Virus record (IMG/VR): IMGVR_UViG_3300009965_000007
Location: 1 to 60,206 of that record
Source: a virus
DNA length: 60,206 bases
Strand: one strand, 5' to 3'
The translations under genes and the position numbers were made by a program. A model generated the notes under the pieces. The model saw only the letters and a program-made list of their open reading frames with translations, ran no database searches and had not been told where the DNA came from. How positions within the stretch are numbered: the first letter of the stretch is position 1; every line of letters begins with the position of its first letter. Shown here piece by piece: positions 1-45,315 of this stretch.

Positions 1-127
1 ACCGACATTGCAGACATAGAGAAAACAGTACTCCACGAAGCAGTAGCGCATCACGGATTAAGAGAACTCTTTGGAGACAACTTCGACAACTTCCTCGACA
101 CCGTATTTGCAAAAGCCGACATCGAAA
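1..127. repeat. Terminal overlap copy 1 (identical to 60080-60206); indicates a circular or terminally redundant contig with 60,079 bp unique length
   Basis: Direct comparison: 'accgacattgcagacatagag...gccgacatcgaaa' occurs at both window ends, 127/127 identical. Confidence 0.95.
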
Positions 128-3100
128 CAAGGCAACAAATAGCCCACCTGTCAGCAAAACACGGCTGGAACATACGCACGGCAACAGAGGAATATCTTGC
201 CTCAATGGCAGAAGATACCAACTTCGAGCAAATCAAACCCACACTGTGGCAACGCATCAAACAACTCTTTGGAGAAATAATGAGCGCATTTGGTTTACAT
301 CACGCTAACATCACCGACAACGACCTACGTTATATACTATGGCGTAGTTACAAGAACCTACAAAGCAGTGGCAAACACAGTATACTCGACAAGGTAGAAG
401 ATATTGCAATGCAGTACCGTCTGAAAGCTGGTAACTATGCCGACAAGGCGACAGACAATGTTTTGTATCGAAGTGGCATAGACCCTACAGCAACAGAAGT
501 TCTACCCGATGCACGCACACGTTACGAAAAGGAAACAAAAGAACCCGACAATATAGATTCTGTGCCAAAAACGCACAACTTCTTTAGACGTTTCTACAAA
601 TCGTACGTAGATAGTATGCTTGCATTGAAGTCATTCACAAACAGCGTACTAGAGGCAACAGGCGATAAGATGGCATCGCACGAAGACACCTACAAAGCCG
701 AAAATGCAATGACCTCCAAAAACAAAACAGACGGTGAAGTTTACAACCGTGACTACTACAACCCATTGCTCACGGCAGCGCAGCAGCTTTGCGAAGCCGT
801 AGGAATGGACTATGATGCACTCAATATGTATATGGTAGCAAAGCACGGATTGGAACGCAACGAGTATATGGGCAAGCGTGCAGCGCAGAACGACGAAAAT
901 GTATTGAAAGCAAAGAAAGCTTTGGAAGATGCACTGGTGGCTTACAACGAAGACCCCACAAGCAAGAATGAAGCAGCAGTACAAAAGGCGCAAGAAAAGT
1001 ATACAAAAGTATACGACAAGGCATTGGAAGTCCACACCAGCAGAGACTACTCTGGACTTACCGAACTCACAGACAAAGAAGATGTTGCGGAAGCCGAATA
1101 CGAAGCACAAAAGATTGTAGATGCTGTAGAAACGCCTGATGCAATGCCGAAAGTTACAGCGTTTTGGAGCAAAGTCAATGCAGCCACAAAACAGACGTTA
1201 AAGACTGGTTACGAAAGTGGCATAATGACAAAGGACACGTACGAGCATATTCTTAATATGTATAAGTATTATATTCCTTTGCGTGGGTGGGCTGAACCTA
1301 CCGCAGACGATGTTTATACATATTACAACAATCGCTCTTACGAGGGGAAACCACTTACAAAAACAGCAAAGGGGCGCACATCGCTTGCCGAAGACCCGAT
1401 GGCTATAATCGCATCTATGGCGCAGCGTAGTATAATTGAAGCCAACAGAAACAAGATGAAACAGACGTTTCTGAATTTCGTGCTTAACCACCCTACCAGT
1501 CTTGCTACAGTTGGCGAACAATGGTACATCAAAAATGCGTTAGGAGAATGGGAACGTAGCGATGCAAATATACCAGCAAATGCAACCCCCGATGAGATAA
1601 GCAAGATTATTGAAGAGCACGAATTGGAGATGCAAAGATTAGCCGAGCAGGGAGCAGCAATAAAGCAGCGCAACGGATTGAAGCTCGATAAGCGTGTAAT
1701 CAACGGAGAGGGTGCAGAGCACACCATCAAAGTATGGCGTGGTGGAAAAGAATATGTTATCTACATTAACGGAAACCCTGCAGTCGCACAAGCTGTAAAC
1801 GGTCTGACAAACCCCGACACGCAAGGCAGCGACTTACCTAAATGGGCTAAAATAGGAGCAGCACAGCTAAAGAATTTCTTATCAGGCGTGTATACAAGCT
1901 TTTCTCCAGCATTCGTACTTACCAACTTCACACGAGACCAATTATTTGCCTCACAAGCCGTGTATATAAAGTATGGACTGAAATACAAGCGGCAAGCCTC
2001 AAAGAATGCACGCAACCTACTCTTTAGCGGAGCATTGCCACGACTTGTGTACAAATGGGAACACGGCACACTTAATATGAACGATGAAACGGAACGTTAC
2101 TTCGATGAGTTTATGCGTGGGGGTGGCGAGACAGGTTTCACAGCCTTGCGAGACATAGAGAGCATAAAGAAAGAAGTAAAAGATGCCGTCAATGGAAACA
2201 AAGCAAACATTGCAAAGCGTGGGTGGAAGTCATTCATCAATGCCGTAGAGTTTGCCAACCGAAGTGCAGAAGATTTCAGCCGCTTTGTAACATTTATGAC
2301 AAGCCGCCAGCAAGGCAAGAATATCGTTGATGCAATCTACGACGCAAAGGATATTACTGTGAACTTCAATAAGAAAGGCAGCGGAGAAATGGGCAGCAGG
2401 TTTATGAACTTCGCTTACATCTTCTTCAATGCAGCCGTGCAGTCCATAAACAATTTCGGCACAATGCTAAAGCAGCACCCTGCACGCACAATGCTTGTAA
2501 TATCCAAGTTCGGTGCTTTGGGCTTTGGAGTGCCAATGCTCAACGCTTTCCTTACAGCACTTTGTGGTGGAGGCGATGATGATAAGTATTGGGACAATAT
2601 GGATTGGGTTCGCAGAAACAACATCGTGTTACGTATACCATTCTTAGAAAAAACATTCATAAGCATTCCATTGCCGCAAGAGTTAAGACCTTTCTATGGT
2701 ATGGGAGAAATAGCAGCATCTATTCTGTTTGGAAAGGAAACGTTCTCAAGCGGACTGCAAAAAGCCGTAGAGGGATTCACAGGACTATTGCCTATAGACT
2801 TCACAGGCAACGGTGGGAACTTGCCCATAACGCTTACACCTACCGTTCTGCAGCCAGTTGCACAGTATATGTTTAATACAGACTACTTCGGCAGAAAGGT
2901 ATATAACGACAATGAGAAAAAGAAGTTTGCTCCAGGTTGGACTAAAGCATTCAGCAGCACGCCACCATTACTCATAGATGCTACAAAATTCTTCAACAGC
3001 CTAACAGGCGGAAATGATGTAGACAGAGGAGGCGTTAATCTCAACCCTGATGTTATAAACCACTTTGTAAAAGGTTACTTCGGAGGTCCTGCAACGTTCG

Positions 3101-3738
3101 TTACACAGATGAGTAGCTTGCTTTATAAAGGCTTTAAGGGAAATGCAAAAGAGATACGTTGGAGAGACGTACCCGTTGCCAGCCGATTTGTACAGCAACT
3201 CGACGAACGAAGTGTGAGAAGCAGCGCACAGGGCAGCTACAAAGACTTCAAGGAAGAGACAGAAGAGACAGAGTACCGACTTTCCAATTACAAGAAGCAG
3301 GTAAAAATGGGTAAAATGGAATATGCCAAAATGATAACAGACTTAATTAAAAGTCCTGAATATCAACGCTACAAAATAGCAAAGGCATATAAAAAGCCAA
3401 TGGACTTGCTACAGGAAACATTGAGCCACATAGACAATACTACCGACAAAAAGGAAGTCGAAAAGGCACTCACAGGACTACGCCATTATATGATGGAGAC
3501 AGTAGAAAGTGAACAGAAAGGAAAGCACGCTAAACGTGAGGAAGATTTCAACTATTTAGGAGATAATCTTAGCGAGTTGAACAATAATCTAAAGTCTTCA
3601 TTACGAAGCCTCAAACGAAACGAAGAACAGCGTTTAGATGGCGAAGAAGATGATGGTATAGAAGAACTTATCAGCGAAGACAAAGAAACAACAATGCGTA
3701 TCATTCGTGAAATGAACAAGCTCTTCAAAAAGAAATAA
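1..3738 (+). CDS. C-terminal part (about 1,245 codons) of the giant polyvalent-type virion/ejection protein that starts at 49082
   Basis: Frame 1 is open from base 1 (TDIADIEKTVLHEAVAHHGL...) into the listed 205..3738 ORF. Base 1 is equivalent to 60080 and in frame with ATG 49082. Hydrophobic helix-like segments lie near 2490-2560. Confidence 0.85.
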   Translation, partial: TDIADIEKTVLHEAVAHHGLRELFGDNFDNFLDTVFAKADIETRQQIAHLSAKHGWNIRTATEEYLASMAEDTNFEQIKPTLWQRIKQLFGEIMSAFGLHHANITDNDLRYILWRSYKNLQSSGKHSILDKVEDIAMQYRLKAGNYADKATDNVLYRSGIDPTATEVLPDARTRYEKETKEPDNIDSVPKTHNFFRRFYKSYVDSMLALKSFTNSVLEATGDKMASHEDTYKAENAMTSKNKTDGEVYNRDYYNPLLTAAQQLCEAVGMDYDALNMYMVAKHGLERNEYMGKRAAQNDENVLKAKKALEDALVAYNEDPTSKNEAAVQKAQEKYTKVYDKALEVHTSRDYSGLTELTDKEDVAEAEYEAQKIVDAVETPDAMPKVTAFWSKVNAATKQTLKTGYESGIMTKDTYEHILNMYKYYIPLRGWAEPTADDVYTYYNNRSYEGKPLTKTAKGRTSLAEDPMAIIASMAQRSIIEANRNKMKQTFLNFVLNHPTSLATVGEQWYIKNALGEWERSDANIPANATPDEISKIIEEHELEMQRLAEQGAAIKQRNGLKLDKRVINGEGAEHTIKVWRGGKEYVIYINGNPAVAQAVNGLTNPDTQGSDLPKWAKIGAAQLKNFLSGVYTSFSPAFVLTNFTRDQLFASQAVYIKYGLKYKRQASKNARNLLFSGALPRLVYKWEHGTLNMNDETERYFDEFMRGGGETGFTALRDIESIKKEVKDAVNGNKANIAKRGWKSFINAVEFANRSAEDFSRFVTFMTSRQQGKNIVDAIYDAKDITVNFNKKGSGEMGSRFMNFAYIFFNAAVQSINNFGTMLKQHPARTMLVISKFGALGFGVPMLNAFLTALCGGGDDDKYWDNMDWVRRNNIVLRIPFLEKTFISIPLPQELRPFYGMGEIAASILFGKETFSSGLQKAVEGFTGLLPIDFTGNGGNLPITLTPTVLQPVAQYMFNTDYFGRKVYNDNEKKKFAPGWTKAFSSTPPLLIDATKFFNSLTGGNDVDRGGVNLNPDVINHFVKGYFGGPATFVTQMSSLLYKGFKGNAKEIRWRDVPVASRFVQQLDERSVRSSAQGSYKDFKEETEETEYRLSNYKKQVKMGKMEYAKMITDLIKSPEYQRYKIAKAYKKPMDLLQETLSHIDNTTDKKEVEKALTGLRHYMMETVESEQKGKHAKREEDFNYLGDNLSELNNNLKSSLRSLKRNEEQRLDGEEDDGIEELISEDKETTMRIIREMNKLFKKK

Positions 3739-3799: not shown

Positions 3800-3842
3800 T
3801 TAATACTTAACCGCACTTAAACATTTCGCATTCATATCTTTG
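3800..3842 (+). promoter_or_regulatory. Late-type promoter P1 (portal)
   Basis: TTAATACTTAA (3800-3810), 24 nt, then TATCTTTG (3835-3842, fits Bacteroidetes -7 consensus TAnnTTTG). ATG at 3865. Confidence 0.7.
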
Positions 3843-3864: not shown

Positions 3865-5829
3865 ATGGCAAAGAAAGAAAAACTGTTAAGTGTAAAACGT
3901 GTCTGTTCTATTAAAGATAGGCGTGCAATGGATAGCGTTGCTAATTCAAAGCTCAACAACAAGGCACGTGCTTACGATGTACTGTTCCAGGCGCAGCAAT
4001 ACTATATGAATATGAGCGAGTTTCGCAAAGAACGTGAGCGAAATAAACGATATGCGTATGGCAAGCAATGGGAAGACGTCATTTGTGTAGAGGGCAAAAG
4101 AATAACGGAAGCCGAATATATCAGACGGCAAGGAAACATACCATTGAAAAACAACCTTATCAGGCGTTTGGTACGCAGCGTGTTAGGCGTTTACCGAAGT
4201 CAGAGCAAAGAACCTATATGCGTAGCAAGAGACCGAGACGAGCAGCGTATTGGCGAAACGATGTCTACTATATTACAATGCAATAGGCAGCTTAATCGTA
4301 TGGACGAAATAAGCGCACGGAGCATTGAGGAGTTTTTGATTAGTGGTTTCATTGTACACCGCAAATGGTACGGCTGGCGCAATAACAAATTAGACTGTTG
4401 GACAGATTATGTACAGCCCAACAATTTCTTCATTGACAACAAAATGCGTGATTTCAGAGGGTGGGACGCAAGTTGCATAGGAGAAATTCACGATGTCAGT
4501 TTCAATACTCTGTGCGGACAGTTTGCAAAGACACCCGAAGACTATTATAAATTATCCGAAATATACAAGTCTGCAAAAGACCAACAGAATATCGTAAGCA
4601 ACTTTACAAGCTTTGGAGCATCGGACAATACAGATATTAGCTTCTTTATGCCCAGAGACGGCAATCTTTGCAGAGTAATAGAGGTATGGCGCAAGGAAAG
4701 CAAACCACGCTATCGCATTCACGACCCTAACAATGGAGATATTTACAAGATAGATGTAGAAGACTACCAACAACTGTTTCTCTCTGTAAACGAAGAGAGA
4801 AAACAACAGGCAATAGAGGCAGGTATGGATTTAGAAGATGTGCCTTTCTTACGTGCCACGTGGTTTATGGACGATTATTGGTATTACTACTATTTAACGC
4901 CATTCGGAGATATCCTCGATGAGGGAGAAACACCATACGAACACAAGAGCCACCCATACGTATTCAAAGCCTATCCATTCATAGACGGAGAGATACATTC
5001 ATTCGTAAATGACGTGATAGACCAGCAGCGATACACCAACCGACTAATTACGTTATACGACTGGATAATGAGGTCAAGTGCAAAAGGAGTACTACTCGTG
5101 CCTGAACAGAGTTTAGGGAGTATGTCAGTGGAAGAGATTGCAGATGAATGGAGCAGGTTTAATGGTGTCATTGCCTACAAACCAAAGGCAGGAGTACCTA
5201 TCCCACAACAGATTGCCGTAAACTCTACAAATATAGGCATATCAGAACTACTCAACATACAGCTTAAGTTCTTTGAGGATATTTCAGGTATTCACGGAGC
5301 ATTGCAAGGTAAACCTGGATATAGTACAACAAGTGGTTCTCTCTATGCACAGCAGGCACAGAACGCAACCACAACTCTGTTAGACCTACTCGAAACATTC
5401 AGTCAGTTTATTGTAGATGGAGCATACAAGGACGTTAAGAATATGCAACAGTTCTACGATGGCAAACGTGTATTCAACATTGCAGGCAAGAGTGGGAAGA
5501 TAGTTGTCTACGACCCTAAATTAATTCGAGACGTTGAATTTGATTTGAGCATAGTAGAAAGCACATCTACACCAGCATTCAGGCAAGTTGCCAACGACTT
5601 CCTAATGCAGATTTGGCAAAGTGGACAAATCAATTTGGAACAGCTACTCGAATACGGAGACTTCCCATTTGCCGACGAACTGTTACAGAGCATAAAGGCA
5701 CAGAAAGCAGAAATGCAACAGCAAGGAGGAACACCGAACGGACTGCCGCCCGAATTACAACAGCAAGTTCAACAAGGTGCAGATATGGACGCTGTAAACA
5801 AGGGCTATAATATGCTTAAAGCCTCATAA
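3865..5829 (+). CDS. Portal protein (putative)
   Basis: 654-aa ORF next to the large terminase. The N-terminal 'FRKERERNKRYAYGKQWED' region looks portal-like, and size and position fit the packaging module. Confidence 0.7.
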   Translation: MAKKEKLLSVKRVCSIKDRRAMDSVANSKLNNKARAYDVLFQAQQYYMNMSEFRKERERNKRYAYGKQWEDVICVEGKRITEAEYIRRQGNIPLKNNLIRRLVRSVLGVYRSQSKEPICVARDRDEQRIGETMSTILQCNRQLNRMDEISARSIEEFLISGFIVHRKWYGWRNNKLDCWTDYVQPNNFFIDNKMRDFRGWDASCIGEIHDVSFNTLCGQFAKTPEDYYKLSEIYKSAKDQQNIVSNFTSFGASDNTDISFFMPRDGNLCRVIEVWRKESKPRYRIHDPNNGDIYKIDVEDYQQLFLSVNEERKQQAIEAGMDLEDVPFLRATWFMDDYWYYYYLTPFGDILDEGETPYEHKSHPYVFKAYPFIDGEIHSFVNDVIDQQRYTNRLITLYDWIMRSSAKGVLLVPEQSLGSMSVEEIADEWSRFNGVIAYKPKAGVPIPQQIAVNSTNIGISELLNIQLKFFEDISGIHGALQGKPGYSTTSGSLYAQQAQNATTTLLDLLETFSQFIVDGAYKDVKNMQQFYDGKRVFNIAGKSGKIVVYDPKLIRDVEFDLSIVESTSTPAFRQVANDFLMQIWQSGQINLEQLLEYGDFPFADELLQSIKAQKAEMQQQGGTPNGLPPELQQQVQQGADMDAVNKGYNMLKAS

Positions 5830-5834
5830 TAAAA

Positions 5835-5862
5835 ACAAAGGTTGCGATTATGCAACCTTTGT
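5835..5862. terminator. Bidirectional hairpin between convergent portal and terminase genes
   Basis: ACAAAGGTTGC / GCAACCTTTGT perfect 11-bp stem, with an A-run on the left and a T-rich right flank. Confidence 0.75.
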
Positions 5863-5961
5863 CGTTTCTGTTTATAACACGGCAGTTGGTATATATGTCA
5901 AAAAATCAACCTCTTTTCATAAACCCATCAATTTCGATGGGTTTAAAATCATACATACCAC

Positions 5962-8091
5962 CTATATTGTTGCTTCTGACAAAACTCTTTTGTGTGTCTT
6001 GCTTTCAGCAGCACTCTTTATTGTTGATATTATCTTTGGTATCTCCATTTCGTAGAAACAGATGTGCAGCCCTATTGCTCGTGTCATCAACAAGTCATCG
6101 TGCTTGCCAACGATAGCACCAAATGCACCGTTTTTCTTACGCTCATAAAACAGATACTCATCAATACAACGTTCGTCTCTCTCCACGTACATTTGTTTTC
6201 TTATCACCTTTACAAGTGTTGATATAATCATCGGTTTTGTAGAGACGTTCGTGTGCCAACCATAACGTTTTGGCGCACCCTCCGCAATAGCCTCCGCACT
6301 TTGTTTACGTGCGTAAAGGTTTGGATATACATCTTTTATTTGGTCTAATATAAATGGAGCCTGTACACCGTCTACAACTCTGTCTTTGTCTTTTGTTTCG
6401 AGCGTGTTGCTCTCTATTACCAACAATGCATTGTCATAGTAGGCAGCTATCTGTGCAGATTTCCACGCAAGAATATCCATATCGGTGTGTCCATACCATT
6501 GTGCAACAACCGACGGCTTATCACCGTCCATCATATAGAACCTGTCAAATACGGTTATAACAGAGTAGTCGGCTTTTGCAGAACGCCCACCAATGTCCAC
6601 AACAACAAGATAGCGATTTGTAACTTTTTCATTTGCCCATACTTCAGGCTTCTTCCATATCCACAAGCAACCCTGACGGTCCTCAATAAAGCGTAAGCCT
6701 TTGAATGCCTCTTTACCCTCGTCTCCATCGGCAACCATATCACCAATGAATTGAGGAGGACAACAAGACTTCTTTAATTTCGCTACTAAATACTTGTCAA
6801 ATACTCTTGTGCCTGAATGTACAAACGCCTCCACATCGTCAGACGGATATTCAGATGCCATTGTAGCGTGGTCAGGTTTTCCTTTTCTCTCTTCCACATA
6901 CCAATGTATAGCTTCGAGGGTTGCGCCAAGCTCCCACAGATACCACAAGTATTTACCACTCTCTTCACGTTCGTTGCTAACATTGGTGTTATTTCTATTC
7001 TTCCATAGCTCGATAGCGAAGTCTGCTTTTTCATCTTCATTCTTAAATGGTAAGCTGTATATATCAATATCAAACCACGATATAAACAATGCCTGGAATT
7101 GTGATACACCTTTCTTTGCAGCGTCATATTCACGCTGGAAGAAATTACCTGTACCATTTGCCGTACTTTCGTAAACTATCATCGTGTACGGCTTTAGCTG
7201 AATACCTGAACAAGCAGACCGTACTATGTCTTCAGGCTTCTTTCCATCTGTAGTTTTCCAAACACCTACTTCGGAAAGGTGTACCAAGTTGTAATCGCCA
7301 CCACGACAACTATCAGGACGTTCGGCTGTACCTATTTTTATTTTACAGTTTCGTTGTGGCACTCTGTATATCGCCCCCGATTTACCTACTCCAACAAGTT
7401 TAGGCTCGTTAGCGTTGTAATACTCCCCTATCTTGTGTAGCATCTTTGTCGGATATGCTTTAATCATACGGTCGAACATATCCTTAATTTCATCTGATGC
7501 TGTACCCTGATGCGCAATGATAAGAGAATTTAAGCCTACCTTGTGAACAAGCTGCAACCACGCCATATACAGCTGTGATGTAGTAGAACCACCCCATTGC
7601 CTGGCTTTCAACAATATAAGTCGTATAGGCTTGTTTGCAAGGCGAAGTGTTTCCAACCTCTCTACAAACCTACGTTGTGGACGTGTCAGACGAAACAAGA
7701 CATCTTCGCCACCACCTTTATTTTTAATGTACACAAGCAAGGCTGCCCAAAACGCAAAGTCGTACTGTATGCGTATGCGAACAATCTGCTCTATTATTTT
7801 TAGCCTGTTTTCCTCCGTGTACTCCGCATCCATTTCCTTTTCGCAAAACACTTTCATAGACTTGTGTTTTACGATAAGTTTAACAAGAGGAACATTTAAC
7901 ATTCCCACAGGTAGATACTGTACAGGTAATGGGTGGTCTTTTATTTCTACTTTCTTTCTCTTGCCAACAGACCCCTCGCCTGTAATGGGATTAAACAGAC
8001 GGTTATTCGCTTCGTTACGCTTGTCGTTTTCATCAAGCAGCTTCGATACTCGAACATCTATTTGTTTCTTACCCGTCTCCGTTCGTACCAT
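5962..8091 (-). CDS. terL: Terminase large subunit
   Basis: 709 aa. Walker-A-like 'KARQWGGSTTS' in the N-terminal ATPase part and a C-terminal nuclease-like 'VVDIGGRSAKADYSVITV'. Sits next to the portal gene. Confidence 0.9.
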   Translation of the reverse strand: MVRTETGKKQIDVRVSKLLDENDKRNEANNRLFNPITGEGSVGKRKKVEIKDHPLPVQYLPVGMLNVPLVKLIVKHKSMKVFCEKEMDAEYTEENRLKIIEQIVRIRIQYDFAFWAALLVYIKNKGGGEDVLFRLTRPQRRFVERLETLRLANKPIRLILLKARQWGGSTTSQLYMAWLQLVHKVGLNSLIIAHQGTASDEIKDMFDRMIKAYPTKMLHKIGEYYNANEPKLVGVGKSGAIYRVPQRNCKIKIGTAERPDSCRGGDYNLVHLSEVGVWKTTDGKKPEDIVRSACSGIQLKPYTMIVYESTANGTGNFFQREYDAAKKGVSQFQALFISWFDIDIYSLPFKNEDEKADFAIELWKNRNNTNVSNEREESGKYLWYLWELGATLEAIHWYVEERKGKPDHATMASEYPSDDVEAFVHSGTRVFDKYLVAKLKKSCCPPQFIGDMVADGDEGKEAFKGLRFIEDRQGCLWIWKKPEVWANEKVTNRYLVVVDIGGRSAKADYSVITVFDRFYMMDGDKPSVVAQWYGHTDMDILAWKSAQIAAYYDNALLVIESNTLETKDKDRVVDGVQAPFILDQIKDVYPNLYARKQSAEAIAEGAPKRYGWHTNVSTKPMIISTLVKVIRKQMYVERDERCIDEYLFYERKKNGAFGAIVGKHDDLLMTRAIGLHICFYEMEIPKIISTIKSAAESKTHKRVLSEATI

Positions 8092-8492
8092 TTTGATTTA
8101 ATCTTACTGATGATTACTTTTATAGAACCCTCTGTAAGGTAGAATTTTGGCGCAGGTTGTCTAACCACTTTAAATATTATCTTTGTAAGACTAAGTGTTG
8201 GATATTTCTGTTTCATTATGGTTGCTCGCCTGTATATCTCAAAGAACATATCACGCTTGTTCTTGCCCATACCAATCAGGGTATCGCCTTTCATAATCTG
8301 CAAAACAACTATTAACGCACGTTCTTCACTTACCCAAAAGCGATCAGACGGACTATTTGACATCTTTCGATAAATCTCCTCCGAACAAATAAACTTTACT
8401 TCTGATATAAGCTGATGATAAAGCCGTAATAGATTATTATTGCGTTCTTGCTCGTATTCAAATACACTCCCAAAGTTTTTCATAAACACCAA
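8058..8492 (-). CDS. Hypothetical protein; small terminase subunit candidate by position
   Basis: 144-aa ORF immediately upstream of terL, overlapping it by 34 nt, with a basic C-terminus. No recognisable motif. Confidence 0.35.
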   Translation of the reverse strand: MVFMKNFGSVFEYEQERNNNLLRLYHQLISEVKFICSEEIYRKMSNSPSDRFWVSEERALIVVLQIMKGDTLIGMGKNKRDMFFEIYRRATIMKQKYPTLSLTKIIFKVVRQPAPKFYLTEGSIKVIISKIKSKWYERRRVRNK

Positions 8493-8533: not shown

Positions 8534-8577
8534 CAAAGATAGTGTTTTGTGTTAATACTTAAAAGTATAACTATTAA
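8534..8577 (-). promoter_or_regulatory. Late-type promoter P5 (terminase operon), degenerate upstream element
   Basis: Minus strand reads TTAATAGTTAT (8577-8567), 25 nt, then TATCTTTG (8541-8534). ATG at 8492. Confidence 0.55.
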
Positions 8578-8594
8578 TAATGTACCTATTTTTG
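8552..8594 (+). promoter_or_regulatory. Late-type promoter P2 (scaffold/capsid operon)
   Basis: TTAATACTTAA (8552-8562), 24 nt, then TATTTTTG (8587-8594). ATG at 8624. Confidence 0.7.
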
Positions 8595-18366: not shown

Positions 18367-18837
18367 TTATTCAAAATTAGCTTTTGTAGGTGCAAACTTC
18401 ATACACAGCTTGCGTCTTATGCCCTTTATAAAGTCATTGTAGTTTGCAAAGTAATATTCGCAACGTTCCTTGTCTGTCAATTCAAACCACTTACACAGAA
18501 TGAAATTCACAAAACAACTAAACAAATCCTTTTGCAATACTGTCTTCCTTTGTGCTACATCGCTCAAAGGCTGTATTATAAATGTTACATCGTTACTTTT
18601 ATCGTTTGACACAATATCCTTTATAAAGCGTTGCAACTCGCCAGCCACTTTTCCACAACAGTCCTCCCAATACCTATCCAATAGCTCATAATCGCTATCC
18701 GTAATAGCTATGCGAGTATAAGTATCCGCTTGTCCGTCCTGCTCTTTAAAACTCTTTGCGCCAACGTAGCCACTAATCCTCGCCACTTCGTTGTAAACGT
18801 CTTTCCTCTTTATATCTAATTCAATGTTTGTTATCAT
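18367..18837 (-). CDS. Hypothetical virion protein (apparent paralogue)
   Basis: 156 aa with a 'FVNFILCKWF' segment and a basic C-terminus. Confidence 0.6.
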   Translation of the reverse strand: MITNIELDIKRKDVYNEVARISGYVGAKSFKEQDGQADTYTRIAITDSDYELLDRYWEDCCGKVAGELQRFIKDIVSNDKSNDVTFIIQPLSDVAQRKTVLQKDLFSCFVNFILCKWFELTDKERCEYYFANYNDFIKGIRRKLCMKFAPTKANFE

Positions 18838-18881
18838 ACCTGCAAACTTAATTATAATACCTTTTAATCATTAGTTATTCA

Positions 18882-21785
18882 TTAACGCAACTGGTTGTTA
18901 AACCTACCACGCAACGATACACTTGCATTGCTCAAACTTTGCGATGTTGTAAGGCTGCCAAAGCCTACAATGCGAAAGTATTTGTAAGGCGACCCACTAA
19001 AGCCACGTAGATAGTGATTTTCAGAGGACCACACTATATTCCAGCTGTTAAGGTCTACAGAACCGTACAGCACCATTTTAACGCTACCATCGTTAAAGTG
19101 TCCACGCTGAATTACACTCTCAACAGTCTTTAATACGTCAGGCGCACCAAATTTTAGTGGGCGTGTAACAAATAGGAACTTTGCATCGTCCCTATTCTCA
19201 TATTCTGAAAGGTCTATTAAGCTACCATCGCTACACATAGTCAATGCCTGTGGGTATGAATTGACACCGTGAGTAATAGTACTCGTCATCATACCCCACA
19301 TCTTCGTGCGGAGCGAATATACATACGCATACGCCTTTGTAGGATTGTACAGAACAATACGTTGGTGTGCGTAATCAAACACCATTCCACTATCTTGTAT
19401 ATACTGTTTAAAAGGGATATAATCAAAGTGTTTATCTAACAGTCCTGCCAACTTTATAATTTCAGAACCGAAGCGCAAAGAACCCAAGTTAAACGCATCT
19501 TCACTTTCTAATACTTCTGTAATACAGGTACTTTGCGAACCTGACAGCATCATAACTCCTCGTGTCGTTGCAAACAGCACAGCACTATCTATTTGCGTTA
19601 TGCTATCCTTATCCACGCACACGTCTCTTGTAATGGGCTGACGTGCCGAATAAGCACCATTAGACGCAACTTCCAAAGCCCACACACCATCAGATGTGAA
19701 AGCGTACAATGGAAATTGTCCGAACTGACCTTCTGAAAGAGCCTTTGCAGCAGTGGAGATGCCATATACTTCTCCAACACCGACTGTTGTAATACCTAAA
19801 ATAGGGAATACAAAAGGGTTGTTCACCTTAGAAGTGTATATCTTGTTAGATATATTCACAGTTCTATTGGCACTTGTTGATACAATAGGGATATTAACAC
19901 CGTTGAATACATCTGTGTCTAACTCTTTCATATCGCCCAGCCGTCTAAAATTACCAAACCAAAACGCACCATTAAGCCCTATATGACTTTCGAGTGGCAG
20001 TTCAAAGTAACGTTCTGCATTTGCGTCCCACGTTCCAAACTCCCATACGCCTTGTATACGAATGATTGCCTTATAGGCATTTGCATTTGGATAATAGAAG
20101 TAATAGATCGGCACATTACAGAATATATCCTTTGTATCGCTTTCAACCACTATGTTGCGACCACCTTGTTTAACGTATATATACGCACGCACCTTGCTCA
20201 TCTTCTGTTCTACAGCTTCTATTCCGTCAGAGTTTACAGCCGTATTTACAGCCGATGGATTAAAGCCACTAAACAGCTTCTTTGAAAGTCCTGTGAGGTT
20301 TAAGCGTTGGTTGTATACAAACGAATACTTTGCAGTAAGTCTGTCGTGGCTGTCGTAATCGTCCGTCATCGTCTGTCTATTCACAAGAGCCTTAAGGAAG
20401 TACTCATCAATATCTATCTTCTTTCTAACTCCCGATGTTAGTTCTTCTATGTTAATGCTTTTGAGGAGATAGAAATCACGGCACGTCTTTACATTCTCTA
20501 ATACTGTTTTGAATGGTACTTTTGGAATTTCGATGCTCGCCTTAAAACCAACGTCCGCATATTGCGCACCGTCAGGCACATTAAACTTCTTCTTATACGC
20601 TGTAATCCAGCTCCAGTCGCTATATTTGCCCTCCGCCTGCACTTCTTTTAAGTTGCAAACAGATTTTACAGTAGTCATATCAGATGACAGAACAGGCGTT
20701 ATATTTAAATACTCTATGTCGCCACTTTGTTTGTATGTGTATATAGGAGCTGAAATGTATACATCAACCGACTTAACGATATCTTTCCAACTTTTAAGCT
20801 TCTCAATTACGCTTGCATCATCTGTTACGATGTAGTCTAAATCGCATACCATTCCAAACACACGGTAGTTTATTTGTGTTGTGGAAAAGAACACCTTATC
20901 CCCTGCCTTATAAAAGTTCATACCCTCTTCCATACATATAGGGCTACACTCTGTAGACGGTATCATTAATATAGGCGCAGAGTGTTTCGTTAAGCTGCCG
21001 TCATACAGCCGATAGGCATAGCGTACAAAGAATGGGTAGATAAATTTGCCGTTGCGTTCGTAATTCTCTGCTATAAACTTGTTCACATACCCCAACACGT
21101 AATCTGTTATCTCTTTCTTTTCACTATCCCTAATCTTTAGGCGAAGCGTGGATTTGCCATTTAGTCTATCATTTAAGAAGCCACCCCATTCAGCTTTACT
21201 TACTCCTTTGTCAAAATTCACAATTGAAACGTCCAGCTTGTCGCTCTGTTTCAACTCGCCTTGCAAGCCAAAGAGAAGAGATACATCAGGTATTTCACTA
21301 CCTAATATTTTATAAGCGTTCCTTTCACTCTCCCATAAAAGATACTGCACGCCCGATGTTGTAAGTAGAATTAATGTGTTACCAACAGAAGATATGCGAT
21401 ACAAGCCATCATCTTTTAAATCGCAAAGTTCGTGAATGTCCGTTCCATTGACAGACCAATACAAATGTCCTCCTCTATATAAGTTAGACTTGCTCGCAAC
21501 GATAGAACCATTAGACGTAGCATTATAGCCAACATCAACTATAATATAGTTTGTATACTTATCTCCACGATGCACATATAGCACCGTACTATCCTTACTA
21601 CCCAATTTAAGCACCGTCTTAGCCTCCTGAATACCTGAAAGGCTAATATTACCACCTGCACTAACATTATCAGGCAGCAAACCCATTACGGCAGCCAATT
21701 CGCCATCGCCACAGTCATAATCAGAACCTGCAGCCGTAAAGCCCTTATATTTTACCTCGTCAATCATACTCTGTCTTAATTTCAA
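18882..21785 (-). CDS. Large structural protein (tail/nozzle/baseplate candidate)
   Basis: 967-aa ORF. The listed start at 21785 is TTG. The ATG at 21767 (MIDEVKY) fits the upstream promoter better. No recognisable enzymatic motif. Confidence 0.65.
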   Translation of the reverse strand: MKLRQSMIDEVKYKGFTAAGSDYDCGDGELAAVMGLLPDNVSAGGNISLSGIQEAKTVLKLGSKDSTVLYVHRGDKYTNYIIVDVGYNATSNGSIVASKSNLYRGGHLYWSVNGTDIHELCDLKDDGLYRISSVGNTLILLTTSGVQYLLWESERNAYKILGSEIPDVSLLFGLQGELKQSDKLDVSIVNFDKGVSKAEWGGFLNDRLNGKSTLRLKIRDSEKKEITDYVLGYVNKFIAENYERNGKFIYPFFVRYAYRLYDGSLTKHSAPILMIPSTECSPICMEEGMNFYKAGDKVFFSTTQINYRVFGMVCDLDYIVTDDASVIEKLKSWKDIVKSVDVYISAPIYTYKQSGDIEYLNITPVLSSDMTTVKSVCNLKEVQAEGKYSDWSWITAYKKKFNVPDGAQYADVGFKASIEIPKVPFKTVLENVKTCRDFYLLKSINIEELTSGVRKKIDIDEYFLKALVNRQTMTDDYDSHDRLTAKYSFVYNQRLNLTGLSKKLFSGFNPSAVNTAVNSDGIEAVEQKMSKVRAYIYVKQGGRNIVVESDTKDIFCNVPIYYFYYPNANAYKAIIRIQGVWEFGTWDANAERYFELPLESHIGLNGAFWFGNFRRLGDMKELDTDVFNGVNIPIVSTSANRTVNISNKIYTSKVNNPFVFPILGITTVGVGEVYGISTAAKALSEGQFGQFPLYAFTSDGVWALEVASNGAYSARQPITRDVCVDKDSITQIDSAVLFATTRGVMMLSGSQSTCITEVLESEDAFNLGSLRFGSEIIKLAGLLDKHFDYIPFKQYIQDSGMVFDYAHQRIVLYNPTKAYAYVYSLRTKMWGMMTSTITHGVNSYPQALTMCSDGSLIDLSEYENRDDAKFLFVTRPLKFGAPDVLKTVESVIQRGHFNDGSVKMVLYGSVDLNSWNIVWSSENHYLRGFSGSPYKYFRIVGFGSLTTSQSLSNASVSLRGRFNNQLR

Positions 21786-21794: not shown

Positions 21795-21837
21795 CGAAGA
21801 TAGCACTAAACACACCCATTAGAATATTAAGTATTAA
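21795..21837 (-). promoter_or_regulatory. Late-type promoter P4 (minus-strand virion block)
   Basis: Minus strand reads TTAATACTTAA (21837-21827), 24 nt, then TATCTTCG (21802-21795). Confidence 0.65.
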
Positions 21838-21995: not shown

Positions 21996-22023
21996 CTATT
22001 AAAATCTATAGTAGAAAAACATA

Positions 22024-22450
22024 TTCCCTATTTGTCGCACTTGCATACAATTAACTGTTATACAATGTATTACAAGACAATAAATTTATTTTTTTAAACA
22101 ACTTCCCTATTTGTCGCACATCTTTGTATTCATCTGTTTATCAATACGTTATAACAATATTTATTAAATTATTAAAGATATTCCCTATTTGTCGCAGTTA
22201 GTCATATTTTATAGTAAAACACCCTATTTTTTAAAAGTCTAATTTAACATTTAGTTTTGGCGCATTTTAAAACATATTCCCTATTTGTCGCTATTATATA
22301 TAACAAGTTGATTATTAGCATATTATAAGTATTTAATTTAAGAACACAAAATATACTCCCTATTTGTCGCAGTACCGTGTAACTTTATATATAACAGATG
22401 GTTATAAACGTACAAATATTTTAAGTTTTAAATGTTCCCTATTTGTCGTA
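22024..22450 (+). repeat. Iteron array: six direct copies of TTCCCTATTTGTCGCA plus one degenerate copy
   Basis: Copies start at 22024, 22103, 22181, 22277, 22356 (CTCC...) and 22435 (...GTA), with a degenerate CCCTATTTT at 22222. Spacings are 79, 78, 96, 79 and 79 bp. No ORFs. Confidence 0.9.
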
Positions 22451-22548: not shown

Positions 22549-22580
22549 GTTAGGATGAAGCTATATATAATATATTATAT

Positions 22581-22618
22581 AAAAAGAAAAGAAAAAGAAA
22601 AGAAAAAGAAAAGAAAAA
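22581..22618. repeat. Helically phased A-tracts, (AAAAAGAAAAG)x3
   Basis: 11-bp-period purine repeat. A second purine-rich tract lies at 22681-22718, and a GAAAAAATTTTTTC palindrome at 22639-22652. Confidence 0.85.
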
Positions 22619-22720
22619 TATTATTATAATACGCACGAGAAAAAATTTTTTCGTTTTTTCTATTTTTACATTCTTTCACAATTAAAAGAAAGAAAAACAA
22701 AGAAAAGAAAGAAACATTTC

Positions 22721-23878
22721 TTATGGTTGTTGTTTTAATTTTTCTTGCATCATTTCAAAATCTTTTCTTATGTCTGTGGCGAGAACTTTTGCGTACGTGC
22801 TTTCGGTTATTTTGGTGGACGAGTGTCCGAGCATTTTTGAAATGTGTTCCATTCTTACGCCAAGCGAAAGGGTCATTACAGCGTACGTGTGTCGTGCCCA
22901 GTGAGAGGATATTGGCTTATCTATACCAGCGTACGATGCAACGACTTTCAAATACTGATTGTACTTTCCGTTGCTTATGATAGGTAGTTTGTAGTTGTAT
23001 TTCTTTAAAACCTGCATTGCCTTGTCGAGTATCATCACGAAATAATCCTCGTTTGTCTTTTGCCTTGTATCTCTAATAACATAGCAGCTTCCCTGTTTCT
23101 CCGTTTTCGAGAAGTCGAATTTCGCTAAGTCCCCGTATGAAAGACCTGTGTAGCTTTGGAATATAAACAAATCTCTTACACGTTCTACAGGCTTGTCTTT
23201 TATCGTACAGCATTCTATCTGTTTTAGTTCGTCCATTGATAGATACTTTAAGCCTTTAGACTTTCCACGCTCAATTTTTAGTTTGCTGTATGGGTTGGTT
23301 GTAATGTAGTCAAACCTTATAGCCTCGTTAATGTATGCTTTGAGCCTCTTGTGATAGCCATAGATGGTTGTCTGCAGATAATTCTTACCGTGTAGCCAGT
23401 CATCAAACCTTGTGATATTGGCAGTTGTTATGTCGGAGAAGTGTTCTATGTATTTAAACTCTTCGAGTGCCGCCAATAGAGTTCTGTGTACCCTCTTTGT
23501 ACTTTCCCTAATGTCGCCACGGTCAAGCAGTCGTTCTGCAATGAACTCTATAAACGTCAGGCTGCTATCATTGGAACTTGTGCGTTTCATAAAACTTGTA
23601 AGCTCATCGAACGAGAAAGGAACGTTGCGTTGTATTCCGTCCTTTATGAAGTCCTGTACCTGCTTCAGCTGTGCGTCTAAAGTGTCGTTGTATTCAAAAG
23701 TGTGTGGCGAATTGACAACCTTGTATCGTTCGTCCCATTGGTCAGCGTACACTTTTATTCCTGTCGAGAACCATTTGCGTTTCCTTTCGTGCATAACTTC
23801 CAGCTGTACCAATCCTTTTTTGTCTTTCGTTGCAACGTGTTTTCTATCAAACACAAGTCTAACCATAGCGTATTTCAT
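22721..23878 (-). CDS. int: Tyrosine site-specific integrase
   Basis: 385 aa. C-terminal 'HWARHTYAV...LGHSSTKITESTYAKV' carries R/H-x-x-R/H/Y catalytic signatures. The N-terminal region is arm-binding-like, as in Bacteroidetes integrases. Confidence 0.93.
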   Translation of the reverse strand: MKYAMVRLVFDRKHVATKDKKGLVQLEVMHERKRKWFSTGIKVYADQWDERYKVVNSPHTFEYNDTLDAQLKQVQDFIKDGIQRNVPFSFDELTSFMKRTSSNDSSLTFIEFIAERLLDRGDIRESTKRVHRTLLAALEEFKYIEHFSDITTANITRFDDWLHGKNYLQTTIYGYHKRLKAYINEAIRFDYITTNPYSKLKIERGKSKGLKYLSMDELKQIECCTIKDKPVERVRDLFIFQSYTGLSYGDLAKFDFSKTEKQGSCYVIRDTRQKTNEDYFVMILDKAMQVLKKYNYKLPIISNGKYNQYLKVVASYAGIDKPISSHWARHTYAVMTLSLGVRMEHISKMLGHSSTKITESTYAKVLATDIRKDFEMMQEKLKQQP

Positions 23879-24342: not shown

Positions 24343-24690
24343 TCAACCCAGTATTTTTTCTTCATGCGACCTGATTTTGTTTATAATGCCCTGTTTCTCT
24401 TTTCGGCAGCGATGCCACAGTAATAACAAAATTAAACCTGTGATTACAGTTATTATTGCAATCACAGTAAAGATGATAAAAGGCTTTCCATCTATAGGAA
24501 CCGTTAGCAGAGATGTCAAAAAAGAACAGAATATGGAAAAACAGGATATTGCAATCTCAAGATACAAGTCTGAGTTGCTACCCTTTTCCAATTCGTTCAA
24601 CTCGCTCTCTTGTACTTGATAGATTTTTATAGTGTCAGTAGGAATAATTTTAACGTTAGTATCACCAAATGAACTATTCTTCCGAGCCAT
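24343..24690 (-). CDS. Two-pass membrane protein (moron)
   Basis: 115 aa with two hydrophobic helices. Overlaps the upstream ORF by 17 nt. AT-rich. Confidence 0.55.
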   Translation of the reverse strand: MARKNSSFGDTNVKIIPTDTIKIYQVQESELNELEKGSNSDLYLEIAISCFSIFCSFLTSLLTVPIDGKPFIIFTVIAIITVITGLILLLLWHRCRKEKQGIINKIRSHEEKILG

Positions 24691-24973
24691 TTTCTATAGT
24701 TTTGTAAATTTTTGCTAATAAATCTGCTGATTTCTTAGATAAAGCCCAAGCACTTCGTAAATTTAAATCAAAGCGTATTACCATAACATCCAAACTTCTT
24801 ATTCCCGACGAAGTGTATATTTCGTCTCTCACACTTACACTCGTGGTGTCATTTTCGGCAATTTCAAGAAGATAAGTGTTATTCATTATCTCATGGCAGT
24901 TCCCATAAGCAGCCAAAGATTTTTTATGAATGTTCTTGTCATCTATTCCAAATATTACTATGAAATATTGCAT
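24674..24973 (-). CDS. Small soluble protein (moron)
   Basis: 99 aa from the ATG at 24973 (MQYFIVIFGIDD...). The listed longer start at 25075 is less likely. Confidence 0.5.
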   Translation of the reverse strand: MQYFIVIFGIDDKNIHKKSLAAYGNCHEIMNNTYLLEIAENDTTSVSVRDEIYTSSGIRSLDVMVIRFDLNLRSAWALSKKSADLLAKIYKTIENGSEE

Positions 24974-25142
24974 TGCTATTTTTTTTATATAACTTTGTAG
25001 AAAAAATATGGATAATAAATCAGATACATTTCTTTTGCAACTATTATCAATGCTGATATTGATAATTATTGCCATTGAACTTGCAGGGATATTTGTAAAG
25101 TTGTAAAGATGCAGGCATCACTCCTTGCTTCCGATTTTGAAA

Positions 25143-25373
25143 CTACTTGTAGCAAATCCGACAAGGCGTAAATCCTTTTGCCTTTGCGCTGCTTACAGAA
25201 AGCTGTCTGATGCTGCCCGAACATCTGTTTAATCCACGGCAAGTTTGTGTTGCGTGGTACTTCTTTGCCTTTGGACCAGTGCAGATGTAGACTGTTGCTT
25301 CTTTGGTCTTTACTTCGGTGCTTACTTGCCCACTTAATATGAATGCGAGAGCGGAGAGAATTAATGTTTTCAT
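25143..25373 (-). CDS. Secreted Cys-rich small protein
   Basis: Signal-peptide-like MKTLILSALAFILSG, then C..YH..C..C....C..C spacing. 76 aa. Confidence 0.6.
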   Translation of the reverse strand: MKTLILSALAFILSGQVSTEVKTKEATVYICTGPKAKKYHATQTCRGLNRCSGSIRQLSVSSAKAKGFTPCRICYK

Positions 25374-25388
25374 AAAATGTTATTTAAA

Positions 25389-25943
25389 TTATTTGTACAT
25401 AAAGATAGTTACATATATCTTATTTTCATCGTCCATTTGAATTCCTACATAGTCCTTCCAATCCTTAAAATACGAATTTAGTCGTTTGGTTAAAGTTTCA
25501 TACTTTTCATCATAATTGTAAGGGAGATGTCGAAATATAAAGTCTGGTTTATTACTGTACACTAATCGTATTTCAGTTAATTTCTCTGTCGTAGGAGAAA
25601 AACGAAATCCGATTTCCTCCACTTCGTTATGGAAGAATGTCCCCCTAATAAATATAATATCAGACCACCCTAAATCGATGTTATAGTAGGTTCGAAGAAG
25701 ACGAAAATAATCCCCTTTGCTGATAAGACCGATATTTACAGCTCTCCTCAAACAGTGTTCTTGTTCCATCCTTGAACTAAAGCTCGCCCAACCAAATTTT
25801 TCAATGAAATAGATAGGGTCGCTGGAAGAACTTATTGATTTTGCTAAATTCCAAAACTTAGATTGACGGTAATAGTAACATATTACAGCAATAATAAGAG
25901 TGAGGGATAAGGCTAAGAGGAATGGATTTATTAGTTCTAACAT
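25389..25943 (-). CDS. N-terminally membrane-anchored protein (moron)
   Basis: 184 aa with an N-terminal hydrophobic helix (PFLLALSLTLIIAVICYYY). Confidence 0.6.
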   Translation of the reverse strand: MLELINPFLLALSLTLIIAVICYYYRQSKFWNLAKSISSSSDPIYFIEKFGWASFSSRMEQEHCLRRAVNIGLISKGDYFRLLRTYYNIDLGWSDIIFIRGTFFHNEVEEIGFRFSPTTEKLTEIRLVYSNKPDFIFRHLPYNYDEKYETLTKRLNSYFKDWKDYVGIQMDDENKIYVTIFMYK

Positions 25944-25945
25944 AT

Positions 25946-26179
25946 CTACTTTAAACCAAGTTTTTTAGGTGCATTAATATCTCTATTGCTCCATTCGTCA
26001 GGTTCATCACAAAAGTTTCCGTAAACGTACTTTGATGTCCATTTGTCAAATATGTAAACTGCGAAACCATTACCACAAAAATGATACTGATACCTGTTAT
26101 TCAGTGCAAATAGGTACAAGATAATAAGAAATAAACTTGCAAGAATTAGCTTTGCTGTGCGATAAAGAGTATTTGTCAT
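25946..26179 (-). CDS. Small membrane-anchored protein (moron)
   Basis: 77 aa from the ATG at 26179 (MTNTLYRTAKLILASLFLIILYLF...), which starts 11 nt after the repressor stop. Confidence 0.5.
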   Translation of the reverse strand: MTNTLYRTAKLILASLFLIILYLFALNNRYQYHFCGNGFAVYIFDKWTSKYVYGNFCDEPDEWSNRDINAPKKLGLK

Positions 26180-26189
26180 AACTATACGT

Positions 26190-26837
26190 TTATTTCTTTG
26201 CCATACAAAGCATAACTCTGTACACTCCGTAAATATCATTCAGCGCAACCTCGAAAGGTGCATATATTGGATCAGGGTTAATCGAAACGCAACGAATACA
26301 ATTCTCTTTCTCTGATGGTGTAAGTGCCTTTACCACTACCCCATTGCAAGTGTCGAGCACATAAACCTTACCCCAGTCTATAAAGGCACGTTCGTTTATG
26401 CGCTTTGCAAGAACGATGCTGCCGTTCGGATACTCGTCTGCCATACTATCACCCGATATGGTTATTGCTATGTCTGCTCCATTTATAGGAGAAATTATCT
26501 TTTCACAGTCTTGCAAGCTGACAGAAACAACAAAGTCATTAAGCGAGCCACCTTGTGCAGATATGGGAAGCAAAGGTACTCGAGTGTATTCCATTTCGTT
26601 GAAGCCAGCCAAAGATGGTTCAGTAGTAAACATAGAACCTTCACCTGTTAATAAAAATGATTTACTAAAGCCAAATACTTCTGACCATTTTTCTGCTGAT
26701 TTCTTTCCAAATCTGCTATTTTCTGCAAGTAAAGCATTAATATATGTTTTTGAAACACCTAGCCTTTTGGCTATATCTATCTGTGAAATGCCCTGACTAT
26801 CAAAGTAGTTTCGTAATTTCTCTCCAATATTTGCCAT
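26190..26837 (-). CDS. CI/LexA-like repressor (HTH plus S24 peptidase)
   Basis: N-terminal HTH 'ISQIDIAKRLGVSKTYINALL'. The C-terminal 'ITISGDSMADEYPNGSIVLAKR' carries the S24 Ser motif (GDSM). Confidence 0.88.
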   Translation of the reverse strand: MANIGEKLRNYFDSQGISQIDIAKRLGVSKTYINALLAENSRFGKKSAEKWSEVFGFSKSFLLTGEGSMFTTEPSLAGFNEMEYTRVPLLPISAQGGSLNDFVVSVSLQDCEKIISPINGADIAITISGDSMADEYPNGSIVLAKRINERAFIDWGKVYVLDTCNGVVVKALTPSEKENCIRCVSINPDPIYAPFEVALNDIYGVYRVMLCMAKK

Positions 26838-26873
26838 CTTTTAAAACTTAAATAAAGTTAATAACTAAACTTT

Positions 26874-26958
26874 TAGTTTACTTTTTCTTGTGTAGTAAAC
26901 CAAAACACTTTACCTTTGTCGCCGTGTTAAGTAAACAGCTTGTCAATTTATAGTAAAC
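26874..26958. promoter_or_regulatory. Immunity-switch operators: four AGTAAAC heptamers
   Basis: AGTTTAC (26874-26880, inverted), and AGTAAAC at 26893-26899, 26929-26935 and 26952-26958. TACCTTTG -7 box at 26910-26917 on the + strand. Confidence 0.6.
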
Positions 26959-26997
26959 TATACTTGTCAGGCTGCAAATTTAAACAAAATATAAGAA

Positions 26998-45311: not shown

Positions 45312-45315
45312 AATA

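Follow-up and report, generated by a model that had tools for sequence, protein, structure and literature searches.

Conserved putative late promoters that pair a host-type -7 element with a fixed upstream box in a temperate Prevotella phage and its relatives

The window analyzed here, the whole 60,206-nucleotide stretch of viral record IMGVR_UViG_3300009965_000007, contains at positions 3800 to 3842, in front of the portal gene, a short sequence followed at a distance of 24 nt by a -7 promoter element of the Bacteroidota type, and the same arrangement recurs elsewhere in the window. The question raised by this locus is whether these sites are promoters of a single late regulon and, if so, what reads them. 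Almost nothing is known about the timing of gene expression in temperate phages of Bacteroides and Prevotella, which are dominant members of the human gut and mouth. We found no paper in which the repeated sequence appears in a relevant context and none that describes late promoters of temperate Bacteroidales phages.

An end comparison shows that the terminal 127 nt are identical at positions 1 to 127 and 60080 to 60206, which indicates an assembly overlap and a complete, circular window genome of 60,079 bp. At the right end, an open frame continues in frame into the one at the left end, giving a single gene for a protein of ~4,911 aa (49082 to 60206 plus 1 to 3738). The giant gene is homologous to the gene for gp3 (5,391 aa) of Bacteroides phage BS-TP4, and its homologue in phage BKO1-TP3 is annotated as "DarB-like"; the DFDxD polymerase motif is absent from the ~4,911-aa protein. 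The genome encodes a tyrosine integrase (22721 to 23878, minus strand) and, in a lysogeny operon at 24343 to 26837 (minus strand) that also holds five uncharacterized genes, a CI-type repressor with HTH_3 and peptidase S24 domains (26190 to 26837, minus strand). Prevotella pallens, P. nigrescens, and P. intermedia have recorded homologues of two window proteins. Among cultured phages, the closest relatives are Bacteroides phages BS-TP4, BKO1-TP3, and BF1-TP2, with 33 to 70% protein identity, and these share the gene order of the window, including the giant gene; a megablast of the window against phage records gave no match. The window is a temperate phage of Bacteroidales, namely, a phage of oral Prevotella.

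The sequence-only reading of this DNA had described six operons preceded by an 11-mer or a degenerate copy of it, 24 or 25 nt (N24 or N25) upstream of a -7 box. All six sites are present, but the count was too low, since a seventh lies at 18875 to 18885 on the minus strand. The exact 11-mer, TTAATACTTAA, occurs four times, and reading of the flanks together with a scan for TAnnTT[TC]G places each copy at N24 from its -7 box; the -7 boxes are those that had been quoted, and the minus-strand coordinates given earlier are the right-hand ends of the sites. Site P1 (3800 to 3842, plus strand) has TTAATACTTAA at 3800 to 3810 and the -7 box TATCTTTG at 3835 to 3842, and it drives the portal gene (phrog_156; 3865 to 5829, plus strand), whose ATG is 22 nt past the -7 box. 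A GC-rich hairpin that terminates the giant gene lies directly upstream of P1. P3 (8552 to 8594, plus strand) has TTAATACTTAA at 8552 to 8562, N24, and TATTTTTG at 8587 to 8594, and drives the head and virion operon from 8624 to ~17217. P4 (21795 to 21837, minus strand) has TTAATACTTAA at 21827 to 21837, N24, and TATCTTCG at 21795 to 21802, and drives a gene for a virion protein of 961 to 967 aa (ATG at 21767) together with the minus-strand genes downstream. P6 (47112 to 47154, plus strand) has TTAATACTTAA at 47112 to 47122, N24, and TAATTTTG at 47147 to 47154; it drives the gene for a T7 gp14-like internal virion protein (47195 to 47746, plus strand), a 433-aa gene, and the giant gene, which runs from 49082 across the junction to 3738.

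The remaining three sites carry degenerate boxes. P5 (47133 to 47175, minus strand) has TTAATACTTAT at 47165 to 47175, N24, and TACCTTTG at 47133 to 47140, and drives a 104-aa gene (46785 to 47099) and the lysis cassette with its M15 endolysin (46064 to 46516, minus strand). P2 (8534 to 8577, minus strand) has TTAATAGTTAT at 8567 to 8577, N25, and a second TATCTTTG at 8534 to 8541, and drives a 144-aa gene (8058 to 8492) and the large terminase gene (5962 to 8091, minus strand). It is the weakest and least conserved member, its N25 spacing is found in the lineage of the window, and BS-TP4 has no recognizable P2 box. The newly found P7 (18843 to 18885, minus strand) has TTAATGAATAA at 18875 to 18885, N24, and TAAGTTTG at 18843 to 18850, and precedes a 156-aa gene (18367 to 18837); its orthologues in two relatives have the exact 11-mer (L045, position 177, plus strand; L032, position 6991, minus strand). 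The functions downstream of the sites are as had been claimed, i.e., portal, large terminase, virion genes, M15 endolysin, the T7 gp14-like protein, and the giant protein. Between the convergent portal and terminase genes there is a hairpin at 5834 to 5863, with a perfect 12-bp stem and T-rich tails on both strands, that is likely a bidirectional terminator; the 88-aa open reading frame that overlaps it (5850 to 6116) is probably not a gene.

These sites are not a product of chance. Four exact copies of the 11-mer were observed against 0.12 expected, and none of 100 dinucleotide shuffles reached four. Copies with two or fewer mismatches, counted without regard to the -7 box, show no excess (43 observed and 48 expected), so the 11-mer by itself is informative only when exact. 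It is the composite motif that is distinctive. When the best 11-mer was sought 20 to 29 nt upstream of each TAnnTT[TC]G box on both strands, six sites with two or fewer mismatches were found, five at N24 and one at N25, while the next candidate has three mismatches at N20; this gap cleanly separates the six from background. A degenerate composite derived from relatives, T[TA]A[AT]N[AG]N[AT]TA[AT]-N24/25-TAnnT[TC][TC]G, has seven matches in the window, compared with a mean of 0.11 and a maximum of 2 in 100 first-order Markov simulations. A sigma-70-type promoter scan gave a result near the shuffled level (59 matches versus 46.7 ± 7.2), as expected in this phylum. In a pattern scan of 185,579 species genomes (596 Gb), 118 of the 120 loci returned were single matches without detectable homology to this phage, as many as a pattern of 17 bases should give by chance, and the other 2 were relatives; the scan does not bear on whether the host uses the box.

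The arrangement is conserved in relatives well beyond the range in which the surrounding DNA is. When IMG/VR was scanned for the exact pattern, 116 loci were returned, and 52 of those fetched are true relatives. To avoid circularity, we chose upstream regions through the orthologues of the leading gene in each unit, before any search for the motif. At P1, P3, P5, and P6, the box is found at exactly N24 in every relative except BF1-TP2, down to 37 to 45% identity of the flanking proteins. In L030, whose terminase is 62% identical, the P2/P3 intergenic region has diverged throughout except for the 11-mer and the -7 box. In 29 nonredundant sites whose spacers are unrelated, only the box, a 5' G (1.3 bits), a 3' A, and the -7 box hold information, with ~0 to 0.4 bits in the spacer and the flanks; the search pattern demanded neither the flanking G nor the A. 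The box itself varies with its spacing unchanged (TTAATACTTAA, TTAATATTTAA, TTAACAATTAA, TTAATAGATAA, TTAAAAGTTAT, TAAATAGTTAA, and TAAAAAGATAA), and T1, A3, T9, and A10 are invariant among the sites listed. BS-TP4, which carries five box promoters, and BKO1-TP3 have the variant TAAAWAGWTAA at the same spacing, and intermediate variants occur in L045, L032, L054, L098, and L065; the hosts of the variants differ, being Prevotella in one case and Bacteroides in the other. In BF1-TP2 (L120, PQ571263.1), no late unit has a box, and the regions upstream of the portal and g247 orthologues are among those that lack it. The portal and terminase of this phage are 47 to 48% identical to those of the window, and its portal gene follows the terminase gene on the same strand. 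BF1-TP2 could serve as a natural negative control in a search for the regulator.

All seven sites lie in an intergenic gap or at the extreme end of the preceding gene, and all are aimed at an adjacent start codon. Every virion, packaging, lysis, and ejection unit has one of them at its start, and they are the only conserved intergenic blocks in distant relatives. As had been noted from the sequence, no site precedes an early gene, and none is found in the early region (26.9 to 45.3 kb) or in the lysogeny region. The proposal of a coherent late regulon is supported by placement and conservation, with "late" being the predicted timing for these units. It is hardly conceivable that the motif instead has a nontranscriptional role, as a packaging, replication, or recombination signal or as a dispersed repeat. 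We found no specific support for such a role; two short conserved blocks around a free spacer do not make a mobile repeat, one of the two blocks is the -7 promoter element of the phylum, and seven of seven sites point at start codons.

A -7 element of the TAnnTTTG type is present at all seven sites, with TATCTTCG at P4 and a G at -9 at P7, and the refined form TAHHTTTG fits six of the seven. This element is identical in sequence to that of the canonical Bacteroidota promoter, which combines TTTG or TTG at -33, ~19 to 21 nt upstream of the -7 element, with TAnnTTTG at -7. In contrast to the canonical promoter, late sites P1 to P6 have no TTG or TTTG at 17 to 22 nt upstream but have a box of 11 to 13 bp at 24 nt. 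A search upstream of exact TAnnTTTG boxes in intergenic DNA found no TTG at 17 to 22 nt at P1, P2, P3, P5, or P6, and the 24-nt spacer of P4, read by eye, has none at that distance. The two early promoters of the lysogeny switch, with -7 boxes starting at 26911 (plus strand) and 26982 (minus strand), are canonical, with a TTG or TTTG placed 20 nt upstream. In Flavobacterium johnsoniae, the -33 element is weak across the genome (PMC6847099), so its absence alone is no proof that an activator is needed. The two switch promoters face each other, and their transcripts would overlap by ~45 nt. In the switch region (26838 to 26997), (T/A)AGTAAAC occurs three times in direct and once in inverted orientation, and these copies are probably operators; the cro-like gene probably starts at an ATG near 26998 rather than at the TTG at 26940.

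The distance from the -7 box to the start codon provides independent, indirect support for the boxes as working promoters. In F. johnsoniae, the -7 element extends from a T at -12 to a G at -5, leaving 4 to 5 nt to the transcription start in probable promoters, and 87% of the transcripts predicted there carry leaders of >10 nt (PMC6847099). Start codons lie 4, 4, and 5 nt past the -7 box in BS-TP4 gp28 (annotated start at 44869; L117, 44869 to 44881), BKO1-TP3 gp32 (annotated start at 16244; L119, 16232 to 16246), and the window gene behind P7 at 18367 to 18837, whose ATG is the one at 5 nt. At five more sites, an ATG or GTG is found at 4 nt (L045, 177 to 230 and 5530 to 5585; L032, 1297, 6991, and 10442). 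These start codons fit the start distance of the canonical promoter (PMC6847099) and indicate mRNAs that are leaderless or nearly so and that begin where the rule predicts. A leaderless mRNA is probable for the 156-aa gene behind P7 and likewise for several other late genes in this group of phages. Counted from the predicted start, the 11-mer would occupy approximately -47 to -37, with its center near -42.

Two pairs of sites are divergent. P2 and P3 stand back to back with their boxes 4 nt apart, while P5 and P6 are interdigitated, with each -7 box inside the spacer of its partner and each box at approximately +7 to +17 of its partner. The order is box 6, 10 nt, the P5 -7 box on the other strand, 6 nt, the P6 -7 box, 10 nt, and box 5 on the other strand; the two boxes are 53 bp apart from center to center, ~five helical turns, and this 64-bp module is retained in all relatives. 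The alternative that each box is paired with the -7 box on the opposite strand was rejected, because one pair would then have the box downstream and the other would have it upstream. Same-strand pairing at N24 is the only pairing that is consistent across all seven sites.

What, then, reads the box? The primary sigma factor of the host is suggested by the host-type -7 box. A box-reading factor that is present only after induction is suggested by the lack of a -33 element, by the strictness of spacing and orientation, by the need for a silent lysis cassette in the lysogen, and by the box-free early promoters of the same phage. Silence is expected because a phage with a CI-type repressor and an integrase must keep its lysis genes off in the lysogen. 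Our favored interpretation, which we hold to be probable, is that these late promoters work with the primary sigma factor of the host and require a further factor to read the box. Host RNA polymerase carrying the primary Bacteroidota sigma factor would read TAnnTTTG at approximately -12 to -5, and a 13-bp element, G-TTAATACTTAA-A, at approximately -48 to -36 with its center near -42, would replace the -33 TTTG from its fixed distance of 24 nt. A trans-acting factor, made or activated only after induction, would read this element and recruit or stabilize polymerase. We infer that the factor is most likely phage encoded; it could be an activator of the class II type or a polymerase-riding protein that stands in for -33 recognition. 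This would turn on all operons for structure, packaging, lysis, and ejection proteins jointly and leave them silent in the lysogen. Several points stand against this interpretation, among them that a stably bound classical activator is awkward at P5/P6, where each box lies at approximately +7 to +17 of the partner promoter, and that no regulator common to all box-bearing phages was found; the weak -33 element of F. johnsoniae and the different hosts of the box variants also count here.

Comparison with known systems shows that, of the defining features tested, only the -7 element is shared, and the sites form a well-defined, conserved class of probable late promoters. Class II activator sites such as those of CRP and FNR are 22-bp dyads centered at -41.5 and bound by dimers; the box has a similar position (~-42) and adjoins the core promoter in place of a -33/-35 contact, but class II sites are dyads, whereas this box is short and has one orientation only. 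Antitermination of the lambda Q type is defined by a Q protein, a binding site for it inside a single late promoter, and a promoter-proximal terminator, whereas this genome has seven promoters. The late operons of P2/P4 and Mu have promoters with a weak upstream half. P2 late promoters have a TGT-N12-ACA dyad near -55 recognized by a small zinc finger activator of the Ogr/Delta type, and Mu C binds at about -30 to -55. The systems of P2 Ogr/P4 Delta and of Mu C (for Mu C, PMC4461284) likewise have several separate late operons of a temperate phage with a conserved site at a fixed distance and a joint switch-on. Their sites differ from the box in sequence, symmetry, position, and the type of host sigma factor, and Pfam scans of ~40 proteins gave no match to the Ogr/Delta or Mor/C families. 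Within Bacteroidota, the crAss-like Cellulophaga phage phi14:2 is reported to have its middle and late genes transcribed by the host polymerase; the "extended tripartite motif" from which this happens is common to many promoters and to related phages, and E. coli sigma-70 holoenzyme recognizes two of its blocks, which are similar to -35/-10 elements (bioRxiv 10.1101/2020.03.07.982082). This phage belongs to an unrelated virulent group, and the likeness is one of description, since the motif sequence is given only in a figure.

The position of the box raises the alternative that host RNA polymerase itself reads it, either through a contact of the alpha C-terminal domain as at an UP element or as a displaced substitute for the -33 element, with no dedicated activator and with timing set by something else, such as a prophage repressor, genome copy number, or DNA topology. 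UP elements are AT-rich tracts at -40 to -60 that are contacted by the alpha C-terminal domain with a loose sequence requirement. The box would lie at approximately -47 to -37, where E. coli has its proximal UP subsites, and its core is TTAA-N3-TTAA in an AT-rich sequence, so composition and position fit; no conserved phage DNA-binding protein tracks it; and it differs between phages of different host genera, a variation that a host factor could also explain. Its high sequence conservation and fixed orientation do not fit an UP element. UP elements tolerate much variation, whereas the exact 11-mer with its nonpalindromic center, TAC, is kept at 40 to 50% protein identity, and the orientation of the box relative to the -7 box never changes. 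Lysogens would be killed if a lysis cassette stood behind constitutive promoters, and the early promoters of the same phage do without the box. We consider reading by host polymerase alone unlikely.

A related alternative, which differs from our favored interpretation only in the mode of action of the factor, is that a phage protein bound to polymerase redirects the holoenzyme, with the box replacing the -33 element. Such a protein could be a sigma-like factor or part of a pair resembling MotA/AsiA of T4. The T4 MotA box is centered near -30, 11 to 13 nt from the -10 element. T4 middle promoters are like the late sites in that an element of the host -10 type is kept while the upstream element gives way to a phage-specific box that is asymmetric and whose distance and orientation are fixed; they differ in that the MotA box is centered near -30 and this box near -42, ending 24 nt upstream of the -7 element. 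The asymmetry of the box, its strictly fixed spacing and orientation, and the retention of a host-type -7 box all agree with a polymerase-bound factor, and the interdigitated P5/P6 module, where the box is in the initially transcribed region of the partner, is easier to accommodate if the factor arrives with polymerase. However, none of the ~40 scanned proteins reached the Pfam cutoff for sigma region 2 or 4, and no MotA or AsiA homologue was found among these early, lysogeny, and lysis proteins. The box would also lie 5 to 7 nt upstream of the -33 position, which is probably beyond the normal reach of sigma region 4. The host-type -7 box together with the lack of an above-threshold sigma domain in these ~40 proteins makes a complete alternative sigma factor, in particular, less likely, and we regard a polymerase-bound redirector in general as improbable.

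It is very unlikely that the box is the operator of a repressor that is made in the lysogen, silences the late promoters, and is relieved on induction. The five uncharacterized genes that accompany the CI-like repressor gene in the lysogeny operon at 24343 to 26837 could supply such a protein, but no small lysogeny protein is common to BS-TP4 and the window, and the AGTAAAC repeats of the switch region are unlike the box. A repressor sitting at -47 to -37 would leave the core promoter uncovered, and promoters without a -33 element are probably weak even when unrepressed.

If the factor of our favored interpretation is phage encoded, which protein is it? The sequence-only reading had put forward the helix-turn-helix (HTH) protein encoded at 44397 to 45311 (g304), the last gene of the early operon. 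This suggestion is not supported by comparison, because the g304 family is absent from BS-TP4 and because its HTH varies while the box stays constant. The protein has no sequence match in Pfam, NCBIfam, or PDB. Its AlphaFold model is confident (pLDDT, 94) and all helical and has no fold match in PDB; the C-terminal 55 residues form three helices with a weak likeness to generic HTH domains (E > 0.4), so that a C-terminal three-helix HTH is plausible at a subthreshold level. The family comprises 212 representative clusters, in most members of which the C-terminal unit is missing. It was not found in BS-TP4, in the first 50 kb of BKO1-TP3 and BF1-TP2, or in the last 7 kb of the L045 early operon before the late promoter. 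The putative recognition helix reads SKLNK in the window versus TKLRE in L106, L055, and L109, whose P5 and P6 boxes are identical to those of the window. Close homologues of the TKLRE type are also found in phages with the early and lysis modules in common, whose structural module is a different one and carries no box. More distant homologues at four loci (P0021, P0017, P0004, and P0005) accompany a different structural module with no box except for one TTAAAAGTTAA-N23 site and have no bearing on covariation. On the basis of the absence from BS-TP4 and L045 and the variation in the recognition helix, g304 was rejected as a demonstrated reader of the box and is a positional candidate only.

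It had also been stated that no other obvious candidate is present. This is roughly true, although there are two weak alternatives. The protein encoded at 41739 to 42410 is a zinc-ribbon candidate and the only four-Cys protein; it matches DnaJ-type zinc finger models below their cutoffs and has weak PHROG matches to Q-like families (E values of 5e-4 and 7e-4), with no stretch passing alone. The protein encoded at 27786 to 28061 is HTH_17/excisionase-like and has a subthreshold match resembling sigma region 4. None of the zinc finger candidates is common between genomes. The C terminus of one g304 homologue gave a subthreshold Sigma70_r4_2 match (E = 0.0018). The Pfam scans covered ~40 early, lysogeny, and lysis proteins, and among these there was no match to sigma-70 region 2 and only subthreshold matches to region 4.

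The only small protein present in every box-bearing relative is g104 (46785 to 47099, minus strand), the 104-aa product of the first gene behind P5. It has a nearly invariant N-terminal motif, KTGGRxKGTPNK, its gene is always divergent from the gp14-like gene, and it has no match in Pfam or PDB. It could be a DNA-binding or packaging protein. Since g104 is itself made from a box promoter, it is unlikely to be the trigger, and in BS-TP4-like genomes there is no early read-through into it. Four relatives encode a protein of 72 to 78 aa, 57 to 90% identical (L117, 44906 to 45142; L119, 15971 to 16207; L045, 5613 to 5831; and L032, 1065 to 1280), whose gene is always the last early gene, with a 3' end that overlaps a P4-type late promoter; the window has no homologue.

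The failure of the obvious candidate, g304, in comparative tests leaves the search for the transcription factor well framed. Across the whole group of phages, three cultured Bacteroides phages among them, the motif gives the late regulon a precise definition; it yields predictions of start sites at nucleotide resolution and of leaderless late mRNAs, and it is a compact and probably inducible promoter part for Bacteroidales genetics. A bolder reading, which we offer as possible but doubtful, is that a family-level group of temperate gut and oral Bacteroidales phages uses an undescribed form of polymerase redirection. Here, -33 recognition would be replaced by a protein of unknown family that reads the 13-bp box, at exactly 24 bp upstream of the -7 element, as a Bacteroidota counterpart of sigma appropriation, and the 64-bp P5/P6 module would be a two-way late switch.

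Several minor features lie near the regions discussed above. The late-early genes and the lysis cassette at 42883 to 46802 have 84 to 89% DNA identity to positions 8511 to 13699 of L246, which has a different structural module and is thus evidence of mosaicism. In L246, the last ~65 codons of g304, which encode the HTH, and the next ~0.4 kb are replaced, and the replacement brings in three additional genes, a SecB-like one among them. A set of three tandem 22-bp repeats (TATCCATAGATGTAC...) at 44224 to 44297 lies just upstream of a 37-aa open reading frame (44298 to 44411) and g304; the open reading frame is conserved in L106 and L109, the repeats are not, and the repeats are present in L245. 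The 935 bp of noncoding DNA between P4 and the integrase gene contain five to six copies of TTCCCTATTTGTCGC, ~79 bp apart, at 22017 to 22450, which may be integrase arm sites of attP or replication iterons and are followed by an (A)GAAAA-rich tract at 22568 to 22714.
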